Positions 18,484 through 23,591 of a stretch of 28,031 bases of DNA are shown here, piece by piece. The translations under genes and the position numbers were made by a program. Origin of the DNA: a virus (lineage: Duplodnaviria; Heunggongvirae; Uroviricota; Caudoviricetes); IMG/VR virus record IMGVR_UViG_2740892212_000023; one strand, 5' to 3'. Position 1 is the stretch's first letter; each line of letters opens with the position of its first letter. The notes beneath the pieces were generated by a model. That model was not told the DNA's origin. It saw only the letters and a program-made list of their open reading frames with translations, and did not search any database.

Positions 18484-20651
18484 TGGCTAAAGCATGGAAA
18501 GATGTTATCGCTTCTCCACAGTATCAGGCGTTAACTGAAGAACAGAAAGCACAGGCTCAAGCGCAATATTTTGATGAGGTTGTTGCCCCTAAGGCTGGTG
18601 ACAAATGGGCTGAAGCAAGAGATCAGTTTTATGCAGCATACCCTCCACCTCAGCAGCAGAAAGAAGAACCATCATTGATGCAACAAGCTGGTGATTGGCT
18701 CACAGGTGGTCAAAGTGCAGGGCAAATTGCAGAACAGGCTGGTCGTGGTCTGGTAAACATACCATTTGACGTATTACAGGGTGGCGCAAGTCTGATTAAT
18801 GCAATCAGTCAGGGGCTTGGTGGGCCAAAAGTATTGGATGATGTCTATCGTCCAGTCGATCGACCGACAGACCATTACGCGCAAGCCGGTGAAACAATTG
18901 GCGGGTATCTCCTGCCAATTGGTACAGCGGCAAAAGCTGCTGGAGCGCCAGCAAAGCTCGCTGGAGATATCGGTTCCGCAGGAAACATGATTACAGGTTC
19001 TCTTGCTGATGCTGCAAATCAGGAGGGCGACTTTGCACAAAATGCTGCCATTAACGGTGGTATAAATATTGGTGCTCAGGGGATACTTTCTGGGGCTGGA
19101 AGGATCTTAACCTCTAAATCACCTCAAGTTCTTGGTGGCGGGGCAATAAATTCCGCTGCTGATGTTTCGAAAATGGCAAAGTCTGGTACAGGAAGAGAGA
19201 TTATTGCCAGACAGTCAGCTAATGTGTCAGACGAAATAGCAAAAGCAGCAGATACTGCTGGAATAGATATCAACGCATTAACTCCTGGCATGAGATCAGG
19301 TAGTCGTGGTCTTGCTCAGGCGGAGGGGATTCTGGCGTCAAAGCCCGGAATTACACAGGATGCACACACCAAAGCATTCAGTGAAATAGAGTCGAAATTT
19401 AACTCAGCATTGGATGAGTTTGGGGCTGAAGCAGGAACTGCATCAGAAAAAAGTGCAGCCATAAAACAAAGGGTTTTGGCAAGTATTGATAAAATGAAAA
19501 ATTCAGAAAAGGCCGCATGGGATAGCGTCCGCTCCACGATGCCTGACGCAAAGGCCAGAATGTCAAACCTGAACGCTACAATTCAGGGTGATATTTTGGC
19601 CGGCATGCCGCTAACTCCTGAGATGAAACAATTCGCATCTGCTTATGCTAAAACTAGTAAAAAAGGAATCACGTTTGATGCCATGAAGGCATGGCGAAGT
19701 AAACTTGCTGACGCAGAGCAGAAGTATATAAGGTCTGGTGAGGCAAATACGGCAAGGCGCATGGCTGAGCTTCGTGATGCAGCAACGGAAGATATGCGCA
19801 TAATGGCTCAAAATGGCGGTTTTCTTGATGACTGGCAAAAAGCTAATGATCTGTCAAAAGCAAGATTTACAGCACAAGAACAGGCTGAAGCAGCGTTTGG
19901 TAGAGACCTTGCAACTGATCAGTTGGTAACTAATGGCTCTAAGGCGTTGCAGGGTTCAGCAAAAAGTGGAACAGGTCAGTTCCATAAAATAATAAGCGCC
20001 CTACCTGAGTCGGAACGCGCGCCAGCAATTGCATCAATATTACAAGATGCGGTATCGCAAGGGGTACGCGGAGGTAAGTCTGAAGAGGCTGGAATTAAGC
20101 ATATCGCGACTATTCTTACCCCACAAAACGTGAAGGCAATTAGTCGATATTCTCCAGAGCTTGGTAGGATTGCCAGGGGGTTTGGAGAACTTGCAAGAGC
20201 AGCAACAAAGCCACTTCGATATGTTGAACAAACAGGGCGCTCTATGCCAGCCATTAGCACTCTTGAGAATGGCCTTCATCCAGTTTTAGAGAGCGTATTG
20301 TCTGGCGCTTTTCCAACCGCTGGCGCTATCGCAGGGTTCTCTGGAGGAGGTGTTATTGGAGCAATAGTGGGTGGCGCTGCAGGTGGAGCAATTGATGCAA
20401 TAGCAAAAGGATCGATAGCGAAATTATCCGCAACCAGAAGTGGTCGTTACGCTATTGAAAAGGCTGTTCAAGAGGCGACAAAGGCAGTTAAAGTTGGGGC
20501 AAGTGATGGCGCATTAGCGGCGGCGGAACGCAGATTTATGGCAAATAAGGCCGCCGTAAAAGCAATTCGCGATGCACTAGGAAACGAAGAGTTCCAGCGT
20601 TTGTCGAGGGCTGGGATTGTGGCATCGCTAAGCGGAATGGCACAGGATTGA
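18483..20651 (+). CDS. Ejection protein, P22 gp16-like (longer than P22 gp16)
   Basis: 722 aa, in the gp16 position. Gly/Ala-rich C-terminal segment. Confidence 0.75.
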
Positions 20652-20668
20652 GGTGACGCCATGGATGG

Positions 20669-21118
20669 CTATTTTTTAAGGTAATAATCATCAAAATCGC
20701 AAGAAGCGGATATCACAGAACTTGAATCCATAGAAAAAGACAGGGTTTCGCATGCCTTTCCGGCCTGATGATATGCATGGATATCACCGGATACATATCC
20801 TCCTGTAGAAAACAACGATTTTTCACCGTTTTTTTCTACAAGAATGTGCTTATCTGAATCATTAATAAACCAAATGGAAATAGAGTGACTTTCGCCAAGG
20901 TCTGTTCTATTGAACACCTTAGGTTGGGTACCCTTGACAGCATTTTCGGCTCGCATAATCAGTTCAGCGCTTTTTTTGCTATTTTTTTGTTCTGTATAGA
21001 TTTTGTCTGCCACAAAATAAACAATGGCAATGGCTAACAAAGATAGGGAAATCAGCAATGCCTTTTTAATCAATTTTTTGGCATCCCTGTAAATCTCAAC
21101 TGATAATTTTTCACTCAC
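20669..21118 (-). CDS. Small membrane-anchored protein of unknown function (sieA-position moron)
   Basis: Minus-strand ORF 20669..21193. Likely start is GTG 21118 preceded by AAGGAGG; ATG 21193 is the alternative. One N-terminal TM helix (ALLISLSLLAIAIVYFVA) then a ~110-aa extracytoplasmic domain. AT-rich compared with the structural genes. Confidence 0.5.
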   Translation of the reverse strand: MSEKLSVEIYRDAKKLIKKALLISLSLLAIAIVYFVADKIYTEQKNSKKSAELIMRAENAVKGTQPKVFNRTDLGESHSISIWFINDSDKHILVEKNGEKSLFSTGGYVSGDIHAYHQAGKACETLSFSMDSSSVISASCDFDDYYLKK

Positions 21119-21183
21119 ACCAACCTCCTTAGTTTTGTGCAGGATACCAGATGATAATGTGTAGTTGGAGTAGCGCGGTTGTA

Positions 21184-21277
21184 ATGCAAGCATTTTGTTT
21201 TGGTTTTATGCTTGCTTGTATGTGTGTACAGTGCATATAATGCAAGCATACATCACAATAAAGGTGCTTGCATTATG
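21184..21277 (+). promoter_or_regulatory. Promoter with four copies of a 10-bp palindromic operator-like motif ATGCWWGCAT
   Basis: Motif at 21184-21193, 21208-21215 (partial), 21240-21249 and 21265-21273. -35 TTGCTT (21212-21217), 18-bp spacer, consensus -10 TATAAT (21236-21241). The copies overlap the -35, the -10/+1, the RBS/start of the downstream gene and the alternative start of the divergent gene. Confidence 0.55.
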
Positions 21278-22267
21278 ACTGAAAAGAAAAGTGGCGAAGG
21301 GAAAGCTAAGGGCGGTATCGCTCGCGCAAAGTCGCTGACTAAAGAGCAGCGTTCTGAAATAGCAAAGAAAGCAGCGGCTGCAAGATGGAAGGATAAACCA
21401 TTAATTGCTACGCATAAGGGATCGTTCCAGCATGAATTCGGGATTGATGTTGAGTGCTATGTGTTAAATGATGATAACAAAACTGCCGTTATTAGCCAGA
21501 GAGGCATGGGAGAAGCGATTGGTCTTGGCGAAGGTGGCAGCAGGTTGCCAAAGTTTATTCAGGGGAAAACTATTTCTCAGTATATCGGGCATGAATTAAG
21601 GGCAAAACTTGAAAATCCTCTTATTTTTCAATACAAACAGGCGGGCACGAACACTCCAGCTAATCCTGTAATACATGGCTACGATGTAACAATATTAATT
21701 GATTTATGTCGAGCAATCTCTAATGCTAAAGCTGAAGGTAAGTTGCTTTCCAGTCAGGAAGGGATTGCTAAGCAAGCCAGAATCATTATTGATGCATCAG
21801 CCAAGGCGGGCATTCAGGGGCTTGTTTATGCTTTGGCAGGGTATGACAGAACAAAAGAAGAGGTAATTCAAGCATATAAGCGATATGTTGCTGAAGAGGC
21901 TCGTGAGTATGAAAGAGAGTTCACCCCTGAACTTTATGAGCATTGGTATCGTCTGTATGGTATAGACAAACCAGTTAGAGGGCGACCATGGGCGTTTAAA
22001 TATCTTACGATAGATCACATTTATTACCCATTAGCCAGAAGTGAAGGAAAGGTATTTAATTTAGCAAAAACGTCAAAAGAAGAAAAAGGCAGCAAAAACG
22101 ATAAAATACACCAGTTTTTATCAGAGGTTGGAGTTAAGGCTCTTAGAACCCAAATAGGTAAGGTTACTGGTATTGCAATGGTTTCTGATACTCGAGAAGA
22201 GTATGAGAAATACATAGATGAAAAGGTTATTGGACAAAGAACCATAGACTTAAAAGATAAAGAATAA
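21275..22267 (+). CDS. Conserved phage protein with a basic N-terminus (…GGIARAKSLTKEQRSEIAKKAAAARW…); I attribute it to the P63C-domain family from memory
   Basis: ATG 21275 within ORF 21200..22267, giving 330 aa. The N-terminal motif and the following ATHKGSFQHEFGIDVECYVLNDDNKTAVISQRGM block resemble P63C-family proteins. Function unknown. AT-rich. Confidence 0.6.
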   Translation: MTEKKSGEGKAKGGIARAKSLTKEQRSEIAKKAAAARWKDKPLIATHKGSFQHEFGIDVECYVLNDDNKTAVISQRGMGEAIGLGEGGSRLPKFIQGKTISQYIGHELRAKLENPLIFQYKQAGTNTPANPVIHGYDVTILIDLCRAISNAKAEGKLLSSQEGIAKQARIIIDASAKAGIQGLVYALAGYDRTKEEVIQAYKRYVAEEAREYEREFTPELYEHWYRLYGIDKPVRGRPWAFKYLTIDHIYYPLARSEGKVFNLAKTSKEEKGSKNDKIHQFLSEVGVKALRTQIGKVTGIAMVSDTREEYEKYIDEKVIGQRTIDLKDKE

Positions 22268-22273
22268 GAAAAT

Positions 22274-22296
22274 CCCACCGTCAGGTGGGTTTTTTA
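22274..22296. terminator. Bidirectional intrinsic terminator between convergent genes
   Basis: Hairpin CCCAC-CGTCAG-GTGGG with a T-run on the + strand (22290-22296) and an A-run upstream that gives a T-run on the - strand. Confidence 0.6.
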
Positions 22297-22320: not shown

Positions 22321-22857
22321 TCAAACAACCCACCAGTTTGCCTGATTGGATGCCAGCCTTGCAGTTTTTATGGAATTAATTATGCCATGCTCAAGAGCCT
22401 TGTTAGCATCCAAAATGGTCGAGTCTGCTATCAGGGATGCCCACCTAATATGGGTTCCGATGTCGATATTGAACGTCTCAACGAAGCGATCAAGATCGTT
22501 ATCGAGGCATTTCCCGTACTCTCTCAATCTGGCATGGTCGGCGGCTGGGGAGGCAAAGCACCATAATAGAGGATGTAACAGGAATCTTGATAATGGGTTT
22601 GCGAAACGTTCTGAGCCAGCCAGGAAAACGATATTAGCTATGGATTCAACATTGCTTATGTTGTGAGTTCTAACGGTAACAGGGAGTGACTTAAGAAAGT
22701 TATACGCAGTAAAGCCAGCGGCAGTTTCCCCTCCCTGACTTGATATATGGATATTTAATTCAGTTGCGCCTTGAGATAATGCGGTGAGACAGTGGTTCTG
22801 AAGTTGCCCAACAGTGGCAGTGTTAACGGGGCATAAGAAATGAATTGTGTGCAGCAT
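22321..22857 (-). CDS. ClpP-family (S14-like) serine peptidase homologue, 178 aa
   Basis: Co-linear with the ClpP core: …NIHISSQGGETAAGFTAYNFLKSL…ISNVESIANIVFLAGSERFANPLSRFLLHP…DANKALEHGIINSI (ClpP: …YINSPGGVITAGMSIYDTM…[32 protein letters not shown]…SAPEAVEYGLVDSI). Candidate Ser, His and Asp triad positions are conserved. Its start overlaps the stop of the upstream Mnt-like gene. Confidence 0.7.
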   Translation of the reverse strand: MLHTIHFLCPVNTATVGQLQNHCLTALSQGATELNIHISSQGGETAAGFTAYNFLKSLPVTVRTHNISNVESIANIVFLAGSERFANPLSRFLLHPLLWCFASPAADHARLREYGKCLDNDLDRFVETFNIDIGTHIRWASLIADSTILDANKALEHGIINSIKTARLASNQANWWVV

Positions 22858-23219: not shown

Positions 23220-23391
23220 ATGGAGAAAGAAATAAGTAAGATTTTGGTAAGGATGCCGCAGTCGTTAAAGGATGCCGCAGTCGTTAAAGGATGCTATAGG
23301 TAGCAGGGCAAAGGAAGAGTGCAGGTCGTTTAACTCAGAGGTTATCAAGCGCCTGATAGACAGCTTGAAGAGAGAGGGGGTAATGGTATGA
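23220..23391 (+). pseudogene. arc: arc homologue (ribbon-helix-helix) disrupted by a 19-bp tandem duplication
   Basis: As it stands the frame is MEKEISKILVRMPQSLKDAAVVKGCYR* (stop at 23301). Removing one 19-bp unit restores MEKEISKILVRMPQSLKDAIGSRAKEECRSFNSEVIKRLIDSLKREGVMV, Arc-like (P22 Arc …RWPREVLDLVRKVAEENGRSVNSEIYQRVMESFKKEG…), ending in an ATGA overlap with the next ORF. Confidence 0.7.
23252..23294 (+). repeat. Tandem direct repeat, 2 × 19 bp (GATGCCGCAGTCGTTAAAG) plus a 5-bp partial third copy
   Basis: Units at 23252-23270 and 23271-23289, then GATGC at 23290-23294. The period is not a multiple of 3. Confidence 0.9.
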
Positions 23392-23591
23392 GTAAAGAAT
23401 GTTGTTTCTGCGGCATTAGCGAATCAGACGCTGATCAAACATACATTTACTCTAAAGAAACAGGTCGGATGCTGTGTAGTGACTGCGTGTTGGACATCAT
23501 AAGATACAAGCATCTTGGATGTTCTGCCAGCATTAGCAATATAGGTGAAGTATATGAAGGGAAAGATATAACTGATAGAGCAGAAAGTTGA
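23388..23591 (+). CDS. Small Cys-rich protein (putative zinc ribbon), 67 aa
   Basis: Two CxxC pairs (CCFCG…CSDC). ATG 23388 overlaps the stop of the reconstructed arc frame. P22 has no gene between arc and ant. Confidence 0.45.
   Translation: MSKECCFCGISESDADQTYIYSKETGRMLCSDCVLDIIRYKHLGCSASISNIGEVYEGKDITDRAES

Follow-up and report, generated by a model that had tools for sequence, protein, structure and literature searches.

What do P22-like prophages carry in the place of sieA, and do the genes found there act together? The question is raised by a 28,031-nucleotide (nt) stretch of DNA from IMG/VR virus record IMGVR_UViG_2740892212_000023 (here called the window), which covers the late and immI part of a P22-like (Lederbergvirus) Escherichia coli prophage. 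At positions 20669 to 22267, directly after gp16 and with the translation-initiation block of sieA, the window holds two divergent genes, one for a small membrane protein (minus strand) and one for a 330-amino-acid (aa) protein with a P63C domain (plus strand). An earlier reading of the window, made from its letters alone (the sequence-only reading), had placed the pair in the sieA position, as we do, and had taken it for one self-contained module with a common operator array, possibly for superinfection exclusion or defence. We find instead that the locus is an accessory hot spot, the hypervariable sieA/immI region, in which two independently assorting accessory cassettes stand back to back. 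The explanation toward which we lean is that cassette A, the small gene, would be a SieA-like exclusion cassette and that cassette B, the P63C gene, would be an independent, autoregulated and prophage-protecting one. Neither cassette was found described in the searchable literature, and the 149-aa product of cassette A is a new, nonhomologous occupant of the sieA socket, as we call this expression site below.

Both open reading frames (ORFs) were checked, at 20669 to 21193 on the minus strand and at 21200/21275 to 22267 on the plus strand; they are divergent and have a 156-bp intergenic region in common. The pair is AT-rich, as claimed earlier, with a GC content of 0.393 (0.367 in the small gene, 0.391 in the intergenic region, and 0.406 in the P63C gene) versus 0.479 in gp16 and 0.474 in the whole window. 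The sequence-only reading had set the pair between gp16 and mnt. The gp16 side of that placement stands, with an HK620-type gp16 ending at 20651, while on the other side a ClpP-like ORF (22321 to 22857, minus strand) intervenes before mnt.

The two genes keep different company in sister prophages. In E. coli 20AR0300, an identical small gene has PanA (Panacea)/toxin cargo as its neighbor, and variants with 85% identity adjoin either a YafO system or P63C of a different type. An identical P63C gene lies beside SieA, a 109-aa protein with a transmembrane (TM) segment and a coiled coil, a 129-aa secreted protein, a 116-aa multi-TM protein, and other small proteins. Across 5,426 complete E. coli genomes, the small gene was found in 5 and the full-length P63C type in 2, and the exact combination of the window occurred in none of the 5,426; one IMG/VR contig (L024) carries it. 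Synteny across prophages, which the sequence-only reading had offered as a check, is not kept for this pairing, each gene being found with other partners. The operator array assigned to both genes in fact travels with the P63C gene, accompanying it into unrelated genomic contexts and other phyla, and it is absent where the small gene has non-P63C neighbors (loci L013 and L014). Given this independent assortment, the idea of a single self-contained module is not supported.

Cassette B (21275 to 22267, plus strand) encodes a 330-aa protein with a basic N-terminal motif (aa ~10 to 38), a putative Bro-N-like alpha/beta domain (aa ~40 to 155), and a helical P63C region (aa ~160 to 320). Both the P63C assignment and the basic motif had been noticed before and hold up: the Pfam model P63C (PF10546) matches aa 202 to 289 with 35.9 bits against a gathering threshold of 26.1, all 35 aligned homologues match the same model, and the protein matches phrog_2384 over its full length (4.5e-103). 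We found 2766 homologues, the best 120 of which are still 60 to 70% identical (Burkholderia, Ralstonia, Azotobacter, and Laribacter), and their alignment contains long runs of invariant residues. From its Pfam description, we take P63C to be one shuffled C-terminal domain of the Bro-N/KilA-N network; Pfam reportedly traces its origin to the 2002 work of Iyer and colleagues. Among E. coli sequences, the first 116 to 130 nt of the P63C gene, which encode the N-terminal motif, and the intergenic region are ~93 to 99% identical, whereas the remainder of the gene is replaced by a type of 52% identity. Such a conserved 5' part with a switched body points to a recombination joint inside the gene, after aa ~40, and since the N-terminal motif and the intergenic boxes described below are conserved together, motif and boxes behave as one unit. 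About 64 E. coli genomes share the 5' part (21275 to 21404) and carry the other body type (52% aa identity).

The intergenic region contains a four-box operator array (span 21184 to 21273) made of the 10-mer ATGCAAGCAT, each copy itself palindromic (ATGC-NN-GCAT), at 21184 to 21193 (+), 21208 to 21217 (-), 21240 to 21249 (+), and 21264 to 21273 (-). Embedded in it is a predicted sigma-70 promoter of the P63C gene (21212 to 21241, plus strand), with the -35 element TTGCTT (21212 to 21217) inside box 2, an 18-nt spacer, and the -10 element TATAAT (21236 to 21241) overlapping the first 2 nt of box 3. With a position weight matrix (PWM) score of 12.06, TTGCTT-18-TATAAT is by far the best candidate on either strand of 21100 to 21300, and the boxes as a whole overlap the -35, the -10, and the start codon of the P63C gene. 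At the other end of the gene, the hairpin CCCACCGTCAGGTGGG (22274 to 22289) has T-runs on both strands and so can work as a terminator in either direction. This bidirectional intrinsic terminator (22274 to 22296, both strands), recognized as such by the sequence-only reading, closes both cassette B and the opposite-strand mnt/ClpP-like operon.

The same order, orientation, and near-identical spacing of boxes recur upstream of P63C genes elsewhere, with usual starts at -86, -63, -32, and -8 from the ATG. The array is found before P63C genes of other E. coli prophages, before ORF23 of Salmonella phage ST104 (32% identical), and in a Burkholderia phage, Ralstonia, Azotobacter, Enterobacter, and most of 80 IMG/VR contigs. 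Boxes occur at 24 per kb in the 140 nt upstream of P63C genes versus 0.10 per kb in the rest of the loci (~240-fold), a density far beyond chance, and the operator array proposed earlier is real in this sense. In 65 of 76 unique oriented arrays, a TAnnnT hexamer occupies one fixed register, sharing two bases with the start of box 3; box 2 contains TTGCAT, or something close to it, in the -35 register, and box 4 runs at its end into the start codon. The spacer measures 17 to 18 nt in 48/76 arrays and 14 nt in 25/76, the latter group being read as an artifact of where the search pattern places box 2 in E. coli-type arrays.

A scan for the DNA motif alone (ATGCAAGCAT-N11-17-ATGCTTGCAT, one genome per species) returned 86 stretches, with ~4 estimated by chance. 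A P63C gene starts right beside the motif in 51 of the 80 stretches that were fetched, and these P63C-linked matches come from Proteobacteria, Acidobacteriota, Gordonia, an Oscillospiraceae metagenome-assembled genome, a cyanobacterium, and Dadabacteria. None of the 29 fetched matches lacking a P63C gene shows other genes with the N-terminal motif, and most of them are single inverted repeats that resemble chance matches or terminator-like hairpins. Some of these lie just upstream of ribbon-helix-helix antitoxin-like ORFs (L144 at ~3003 and L146 at ~213) or of SWIM-zinc-finger-like ORFs (L114 at ~72 and L126 at ~7832); here the box may serve other cassettes, or the matches may be due to chance.

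Which protein reads the boxes? The P63C neighborhoods that we examined hold cI with an endonuclease, ParE/Phd, a DinI-like gene, an Mrr-type restriction enzyme, a YqaJ-type exonuclease with RdgC, or integrases, and no other gene co-travels with the cassette through them. Given this and hosts in several phyla, the P63C protein itself is the simplest binder of the boxes. A host factor was considered for the same role and ruled out, since the hosts span many phyla and only the P63C gene co-travels. The N-terminal motif is missing from four homologues (three IMG/VR proteins and one Streptococcus satellite protein), and none of the four has the array (Fisher P = 2.4e-4 for this co-loss, on counts tallied approximately by hand). 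We consider it very probable that the P63C gene is a negatively autoregulated single-gene cassette, and likely that its N-terminal motif is the element that reads the boxes. Cassette B would then be an autonomous one-gene unit of promoter, four boxes, gene, and terminator, whose product would bind the four ATGCAAGCAT boxes and repress its own transcription, giving a steady level in the lysogen. Two points weigh against this reading: three of the four motif-less homologues may form one clade, which would leave ~two independent losses, and we infer binding of the boxes from co-inheritance alone.

Two other accounts of the same intergenic region were weighed against autoregulation. In the model of the sequence-only reading, both genes would form one co-functional, co-regulated defense module sharing the array. 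The divergent neighbors do have their 156-bp intergenic region in common, contig L024 has the same pairing, and box 1 comes within ~15 nt of the small gene's putative -35, on its upstream side. Nevertheless, the partners change from one sister prophage to the next, the array accompanies P63C where no such membrane gene is present, loci L013 and L014 have the small gene but no array, and P63C, with its 2766 homologues across phyla, contrasts with a small-protein family of ~15 clusters confined to P22-like elements, so that we regard a joint module as highly improbable. Alternatively, the boxes might act as RNA, with two hairpins or alternative 1:2/2:3/3:4 pairings in the leader hiding the Shine-Dalgarno (SD) sequence and start codon and exerting translational control or attenuation. 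In favor of this, the SD lies between boxes 3 and 4, an inverted repeat that reaches up to or into the ATG; a second hairpin can be drawn from boxes 1 and 2, boxes 2 and 3 are complementary, and Rfam microRNA hairpin models score weakly, far below threshold, on 21176 to 21283. However, with the conserved -35 and -10 in boxes 2 and 3, the predicted transcript begins at the end of box 3 and would lack the 5' arm, which disfavors a hairpin role. The box sequence is also near-invariant across phyla while the spacers vary; departures from its consensus are mostly uncompensated (166, versus 21 compensated), as expected of a protein site rather than an RNA stem; and the palindromy of each 10-mer is a feature of dimeric-protein sites. 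An RNA role therefore appears to us hardly credible.

No relevant work on P63C, its domain, or the box sequence turned up in the literature searched. As a Pfam domain, P63C occurs in thousands of prophages, and the array would give it a first concrete, testable property, namely, predicted sequence-specific DNA binding with autoregulation. A near-invariant operator that surrounds the gene's own promoter, in E. coli and as far away as Acidobacteriota, Gordonia, and Oscillospiraceae, also provides a defined DNA probe for biochemistry.

Turning to cassette A, the longest ORF of the small gene has 174 aa and starts at an ATG at 21193. However, AGGAGG at 21129 to 21124 on the minus strand is followed after 5 nt by a GTG at 21118, and RefSeq starts identical and 85%-identical genes at this same GTG, giving 149 aa. 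Together with the ORF list and the family alignment, this makes 20669 to 21118 (minus strand, GTG at 21118 to 21116) the most likely extent of the gene, a 149-aa bitopic inner-membrane protein by prediction, with the longer ORF being an upstream extension. The 34 nt at 21116 to 21149 (minus strand) are 100% identical to the sieA-start region of Salmonella phages As1, As3, and ST-35, and in Salmonella P22-like phages the sieA start there is annotated as GTG. This translation-initiation block shared with P22-type sieA comprises a -10-like TATCCT (21146 to 21141), the SD sequence AGGAGG (21129 to 21124), and the GTG. The best sigma-70 candidate for the small gene is a weak one (TCCAAC-17-TATCCT; PWM score 4.26), and its assignment as the promoter within the block is an inference. 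P22-type phages, seen here in Salmonella phage As3 (L002, 2534 to 2899), have a 121-aa plus-strand ORF that begins only 30 nt from the sieA start, in the position taken by the P63C cassette in the window; this ORF would then be overlapped by the 85 bp upstream of sieA, with the putative PsieA inside.

The block is not particular to these two genes. In a scan of the fetched loci (L001 to L095), AACTAAGGAGGTTGGT plus GTG heads at least 10 unrelated small proteins: SieA, the 149-aa family, TM and coiled-coil proteins of 109 and 107 aa, 129- and 99-aa proteins with signal peptides, multi-TM proteins of 62, 75, and 116 aa, and one soluble 140-aa protein. Nearly all occupants are thus membrane or secreted proteins. 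A premature stop cuts the 109-aa occupant to 27 aa in L005 and L095. Swapping of unrelated envelope proteins beside fast-evolving ejection genes would be the expected outcome of an exclusion arms race. The sieA locus of P22-like prophages can accordingly be redefined as a fixed expression socket that takes many unrelated, mostly envelope, proteins, and its occupants are candidate exclusion proteins against the known gp16/gp20 DNA-delivery conduit. The LF82/Gally paper holds no data on this slot.

The topology proposed for the small protein by the sequence-only reading, a single pass with an extracytoplasmic domain of ~110 aa, was recovered: there is one hydrophobic segment (aa 20 to 38; Kyte-Doolittle score 2.34), preceded by a Lys/Arg-rich N-terminus and followed by ~110 residues. 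The predicted regions are a cytoplasmic IYxDxKxxxKK motif, a TM segment at aa ~20 to 38, and a periplasmic beta domain at aa ~65 to 147 with two conserved Cys. An AlphaFold2 model consists of one long helix and then a beta domain (predicted local distance difference test score, 70.6). The gene has a dN/dS of 0.13 to 0.35, indicating purifying selection. An exhaustive profile search of 1.84 billion representative proteins recovered a family of only ~15 clusters that has in common IYxDxKxxxKK before the TM segment and the C-terminal motifs FxRxDxG, WFIxDTDxH, and AGxxC...SxxCD. The two conserved Cys fit an oxidizing, periplasmic location, and the putative periplasmic beta-barrel domain is probably disulfide bonded. 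A tblastn search with the small protein against 50,697 phage records gave no match, and a profile search with the family found no relative in GTDB representative genomes. We examined five placements of the family, the window and relatives at 64, 31, 26, and 23% identity, and in all five the small gene directly adjoins the gp16-position gene of a P22-like element. In the most distant of these (L102, 23% identity), the gene follows mnt on the same strand at a distance of 20 nt, an arrangement suggestive of transcription together with a repressor gene that lysogens express. The gp16-position ejection protein there (L102/L103, 5471 to 8155) has 894 aa and contains an SLT lytic transglycosylase domain.

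SieA, which sits in the inner membrane, prevents DNA delivery through the gp20/gp16 conduit, and it is recognized by three (type A) or four predicted TM helices and the motif FxRYPxEAxxFNK (Leavitt et al. 2024, PMC10883804). The small protein is likewise a small, predicted inner-membrane protein of a P22-like prophage, encoded in the same slot by a gene that immediately follows gene 16 on the other strand, with an identical SD and GTG block, and it lies between homologues of genes 16 and 9 of a P22-like prophage, the position that belongs to the definition of SieA. Yet it has one TM segment instead of three or four, lacks FxRYPxEAxxFNK, and would have its bulk in the periplasm, whereas that of SieA is in the membrane or cytoplasm. 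Homology was not detected: alignment of the family profile with P22-type SieA by hhalign gave P = 0.16 over 22 columns, covering the TM segment only, and SieA was not among the homologues found by the small-protein searches. From the position beside gp16, the sieA block, the turnover of occupants, and the known target of SieA, we favor, with modest confidence, reading cassette A as a nonhomologous functional analogue of SieA in superinfection exclusion. It would be a positional replacement of sieA, translated from the sieA SD/GTG block. Its product, made from the prophage, would be anchored in the inner membrane with the N-terminus in the cytoplasm and the beta-barrel domain in the periplasm, and, acting in the periplasm or at the inner membrane, would hinder the machinery by which superinfecting P22-like phages deliver their DNA, with either the gp7/gp20/gp16 conduit or a virion-borne cell-wall hydrolase as the target.

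Exclusion through inhibition of a virion-borne cell-wall hydrolase has a precedent in T4 Sp. The best fold matches of the small protein are PliC, MliC, PhiA, and ACP, and like these and T4 Sp it would combine a small beta-barrel-like periplasmic domain, a Cys pair, and an inner-membrane anchor; one family member, that in L102, adjoins the SLT-containing ejection protein. No MliC or PliC family appeared among the Pfam matches of 16 family members (E of 10 or lower), and a profile search of the PDB with the family yielded nothing useful. That empty search and the lack of any match of the small protein in PADLOC or NCBIfam count against exclusion. Of the superinfection-exclusion or defense role suggested by the sequence-only reading, exclusion is plausible for the membrane protein, by its topology and position; as the role of a joint two-gene module it is not supported.

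For cassette B, our best guess among possible functions is prophage defense of the kind exerted by BstA, which we put forward tentatively. BstA, a prophage-encoded abortive-infection protein, has ~307 aa and a KilA-N-like domain at its N-terminus; the bstA start codon is overlapped by a DNA element, aba (Owen et al. 2021, PMC8585504). By analogy, the P63C protein would act on DNA and thereby shield its prophage from other phages, as the KilA-N protein BstA does. Each is a single protein of ~310 to 330 aa in which an N-terminal KilA-N/Bro-N-type DNA-binding domain (putative in P63C) is joined to another domain, each shows strong conservation across Proteobacteria and a link to prophages, and in both a DNA element overlaps the gene start (in P63C, the four-box array). 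The P63C paralogue of ST104-like Salmonella phages even occupies the slot downstream of cI, as bstA does in BTP1. More widely, P63C homologues lie between cI and N in ST104-type phages (the rexAB/bstA slot), after cI in Azotobacter, at one end of a prophage in Enterobacter, and, in Gordonia and Pseudomonas phages, close to the integrase, and the slot in sister prophages is otherwise taken by toxin-antitoxin cargo (PanA/Panacea and YafO). Such slots typically hold prophage-expressed accessory or defense genes. If the analogy is true, a widespread prophage defense has been missed by current defense finders.

In favor of the analogy, hhalign aligned P63C with BstA at P = 0.0024 over 115 columns of the N-terminal domains (P63C 60 to 194 and BstA 29 to 153), with VLNDG..(S/T).RG(M/L) in common. 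Several results count against it. The probability of that alignment is only 12%. The two proteins have different C-terminal domains, that of BstA being PF26567 (BstA_C) and that of P63C being PF10546, and Pfam finds only P63C. Whereas aba is specific to each homologue, the P63C box is near-invariant and lies like an operator over a promoter. In Laribacter, the P63C gene sits inside an early operon without the array, so the family is not bound to lysogenic expression and a lytic-cycle role would fit this instance equally. The structure- and profile-based checks foreseen by the sequence-only reading gave the Pfam match for P63C and, for both proteins, empty or spurious results in PADLOC, NCBIfam, and PDB sequence searches: the P63C protein had no match in NCBIfam or PADLOC (E of 0.1 or lower; a BstA model is assumed to be present in PADLOC-DB v2.0.0), and the PDB search with its profile returned only spurious designed Kelch repeats matching "GLVYALAGYD." The setting differs as well, since bstA lies downstream of the prophage repressor and shares its promoter while the P63C gene of the window is in the immI region with a promoter of its own; the repressor-downstream position is seen in the 32%-identical paralogue, ORF23 of ST104, and in the Azotobacter homologue, after cI.

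Both functional proposals have competitors. The small protein might be no exclusion factor at all but a lysogenic-conversion or housekeeping envelope protein, such as an inhibitor of host or foreign lysozymes, a factor in envelope stress or virulence, or a protein assisting the phage's own lysis or DNA ejection. Its best fold matches, PliC, MliC, PhiA, and ACP, guard against lysozymes in general, and it has neither homology to SieA nor a match to a defense model. This must be set against its place beside ejection-protein genes in 5/5 placements, down to 23% identity, the initiation block that it has in common with sieA, and the succession of unrelated envelope proteins in the slot, as is typical of a locus under an arms race. 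Because the gene opposes the late operon and is apparently co-transcribed with mnt in one relative, it is not a virion or late gene, and we think a general envelope function unlikely, at perhaps the level of a serious minority view. The P63C protein, for its part, might be an antirepressor-type regulator like Ant, Roi, and the Gifsy antirepressors, binding DNA and/or repressor and controlling induction of its own or competing prophages. As in the Bro-N/KilA-N antirepressor-like proteins (P22 Ant, HK022 Roi, and baculovirus BRO), an N-terminal alpha/beta DNA-binding-type domain would precede a variable helical C-terminal domain, and its structural neighbors are mostly Bro-N and also antirepressor and "repressor domain" proteins. 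Its gene lies in the immI region near mnt, arc, and ant, adjoins a dinI-like gene in Enterobacter and SEN34, and is embedded in the early operon of Laribacter. Unlike those proteins, P63C adds a basic N-terminal motif and a conserved four-box operator, for which no description in Bro-N/KilA-N families was found in the literature searched. Moreover, the Pfam Bro-N model (PF02498) matched none of 35 P63C members at an E of 1 or lower, alignment with Ant, the window's own Bro-N protein, gave P = 0.17 (hhalign), the cassette has its own, apparently autoregulated promoter rather than Mnt/Arc or LexA-type control, and P63C slots are otherwise filled by Rex-like, toxin-antitoxin, or BstA-type cargo. 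An antirepressor role is accordingly doubtful.

A stronger version of the BstA-like reading, which we consider improbable, is that the P63C cassette is a cross-phyla single-gene antiphage system resembling BstA-aba, with a universal DNA element. The boxes would then be dual, serving as an operator for a low level in the lysogen and as a "self" decoy that senses copy number. During replication of the resident prophage they would titrate P63C, so that the resident would escape its own block and foreign phages would not. The basic two-helix N-terminal motif would, in that case, be a previously unrecognized sequence-specific DNA-binding module.

The remainder of the window is that of a P22-like prophage. 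Its late genes encode gp4, gp10, a needle with an Sf6-type knob, gp14, gp7, gp20, and gp16, and 3' of position 22267 the ClpP-like ORF and mnt (minus strand) are followed by arc, a small Cys-rich ORF, and Ant, which has Bro-N and P22_AR_C domains. The ClpP-like ORF (178 aa; Pfam CLP_protease, 2.2e-11) overlaps the mnt stop at 22857 and apparently shares an operon with mnt. Inspection by eye suggests that the Ser-His-Asp triad positions of ClpP are retained, and the ORF is present in sister prophages L005 and L012 and absent from L015. The arc gene (~23221 to 23389, plus strand) contains a perfect 19-bp tandem duplication, AAGGATGCCGCAGTCGTTA (2.4 copies, 23249 to 23294), which shifts the frame to an early stop; removal of one copy restores an Arc of ~50 aa. 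Arc thus looks inactivated here, and ant would then be under the control of Mnt alone. Between arc and ant, a 67-aa Cys-rich ORF (23388 to 23591, plus strand; CCFC...CSDC) is zinc-ribbon-like and without a Pfam match, and sister prophages hold a hypothetical gene of 73 to 74 aa in its place.

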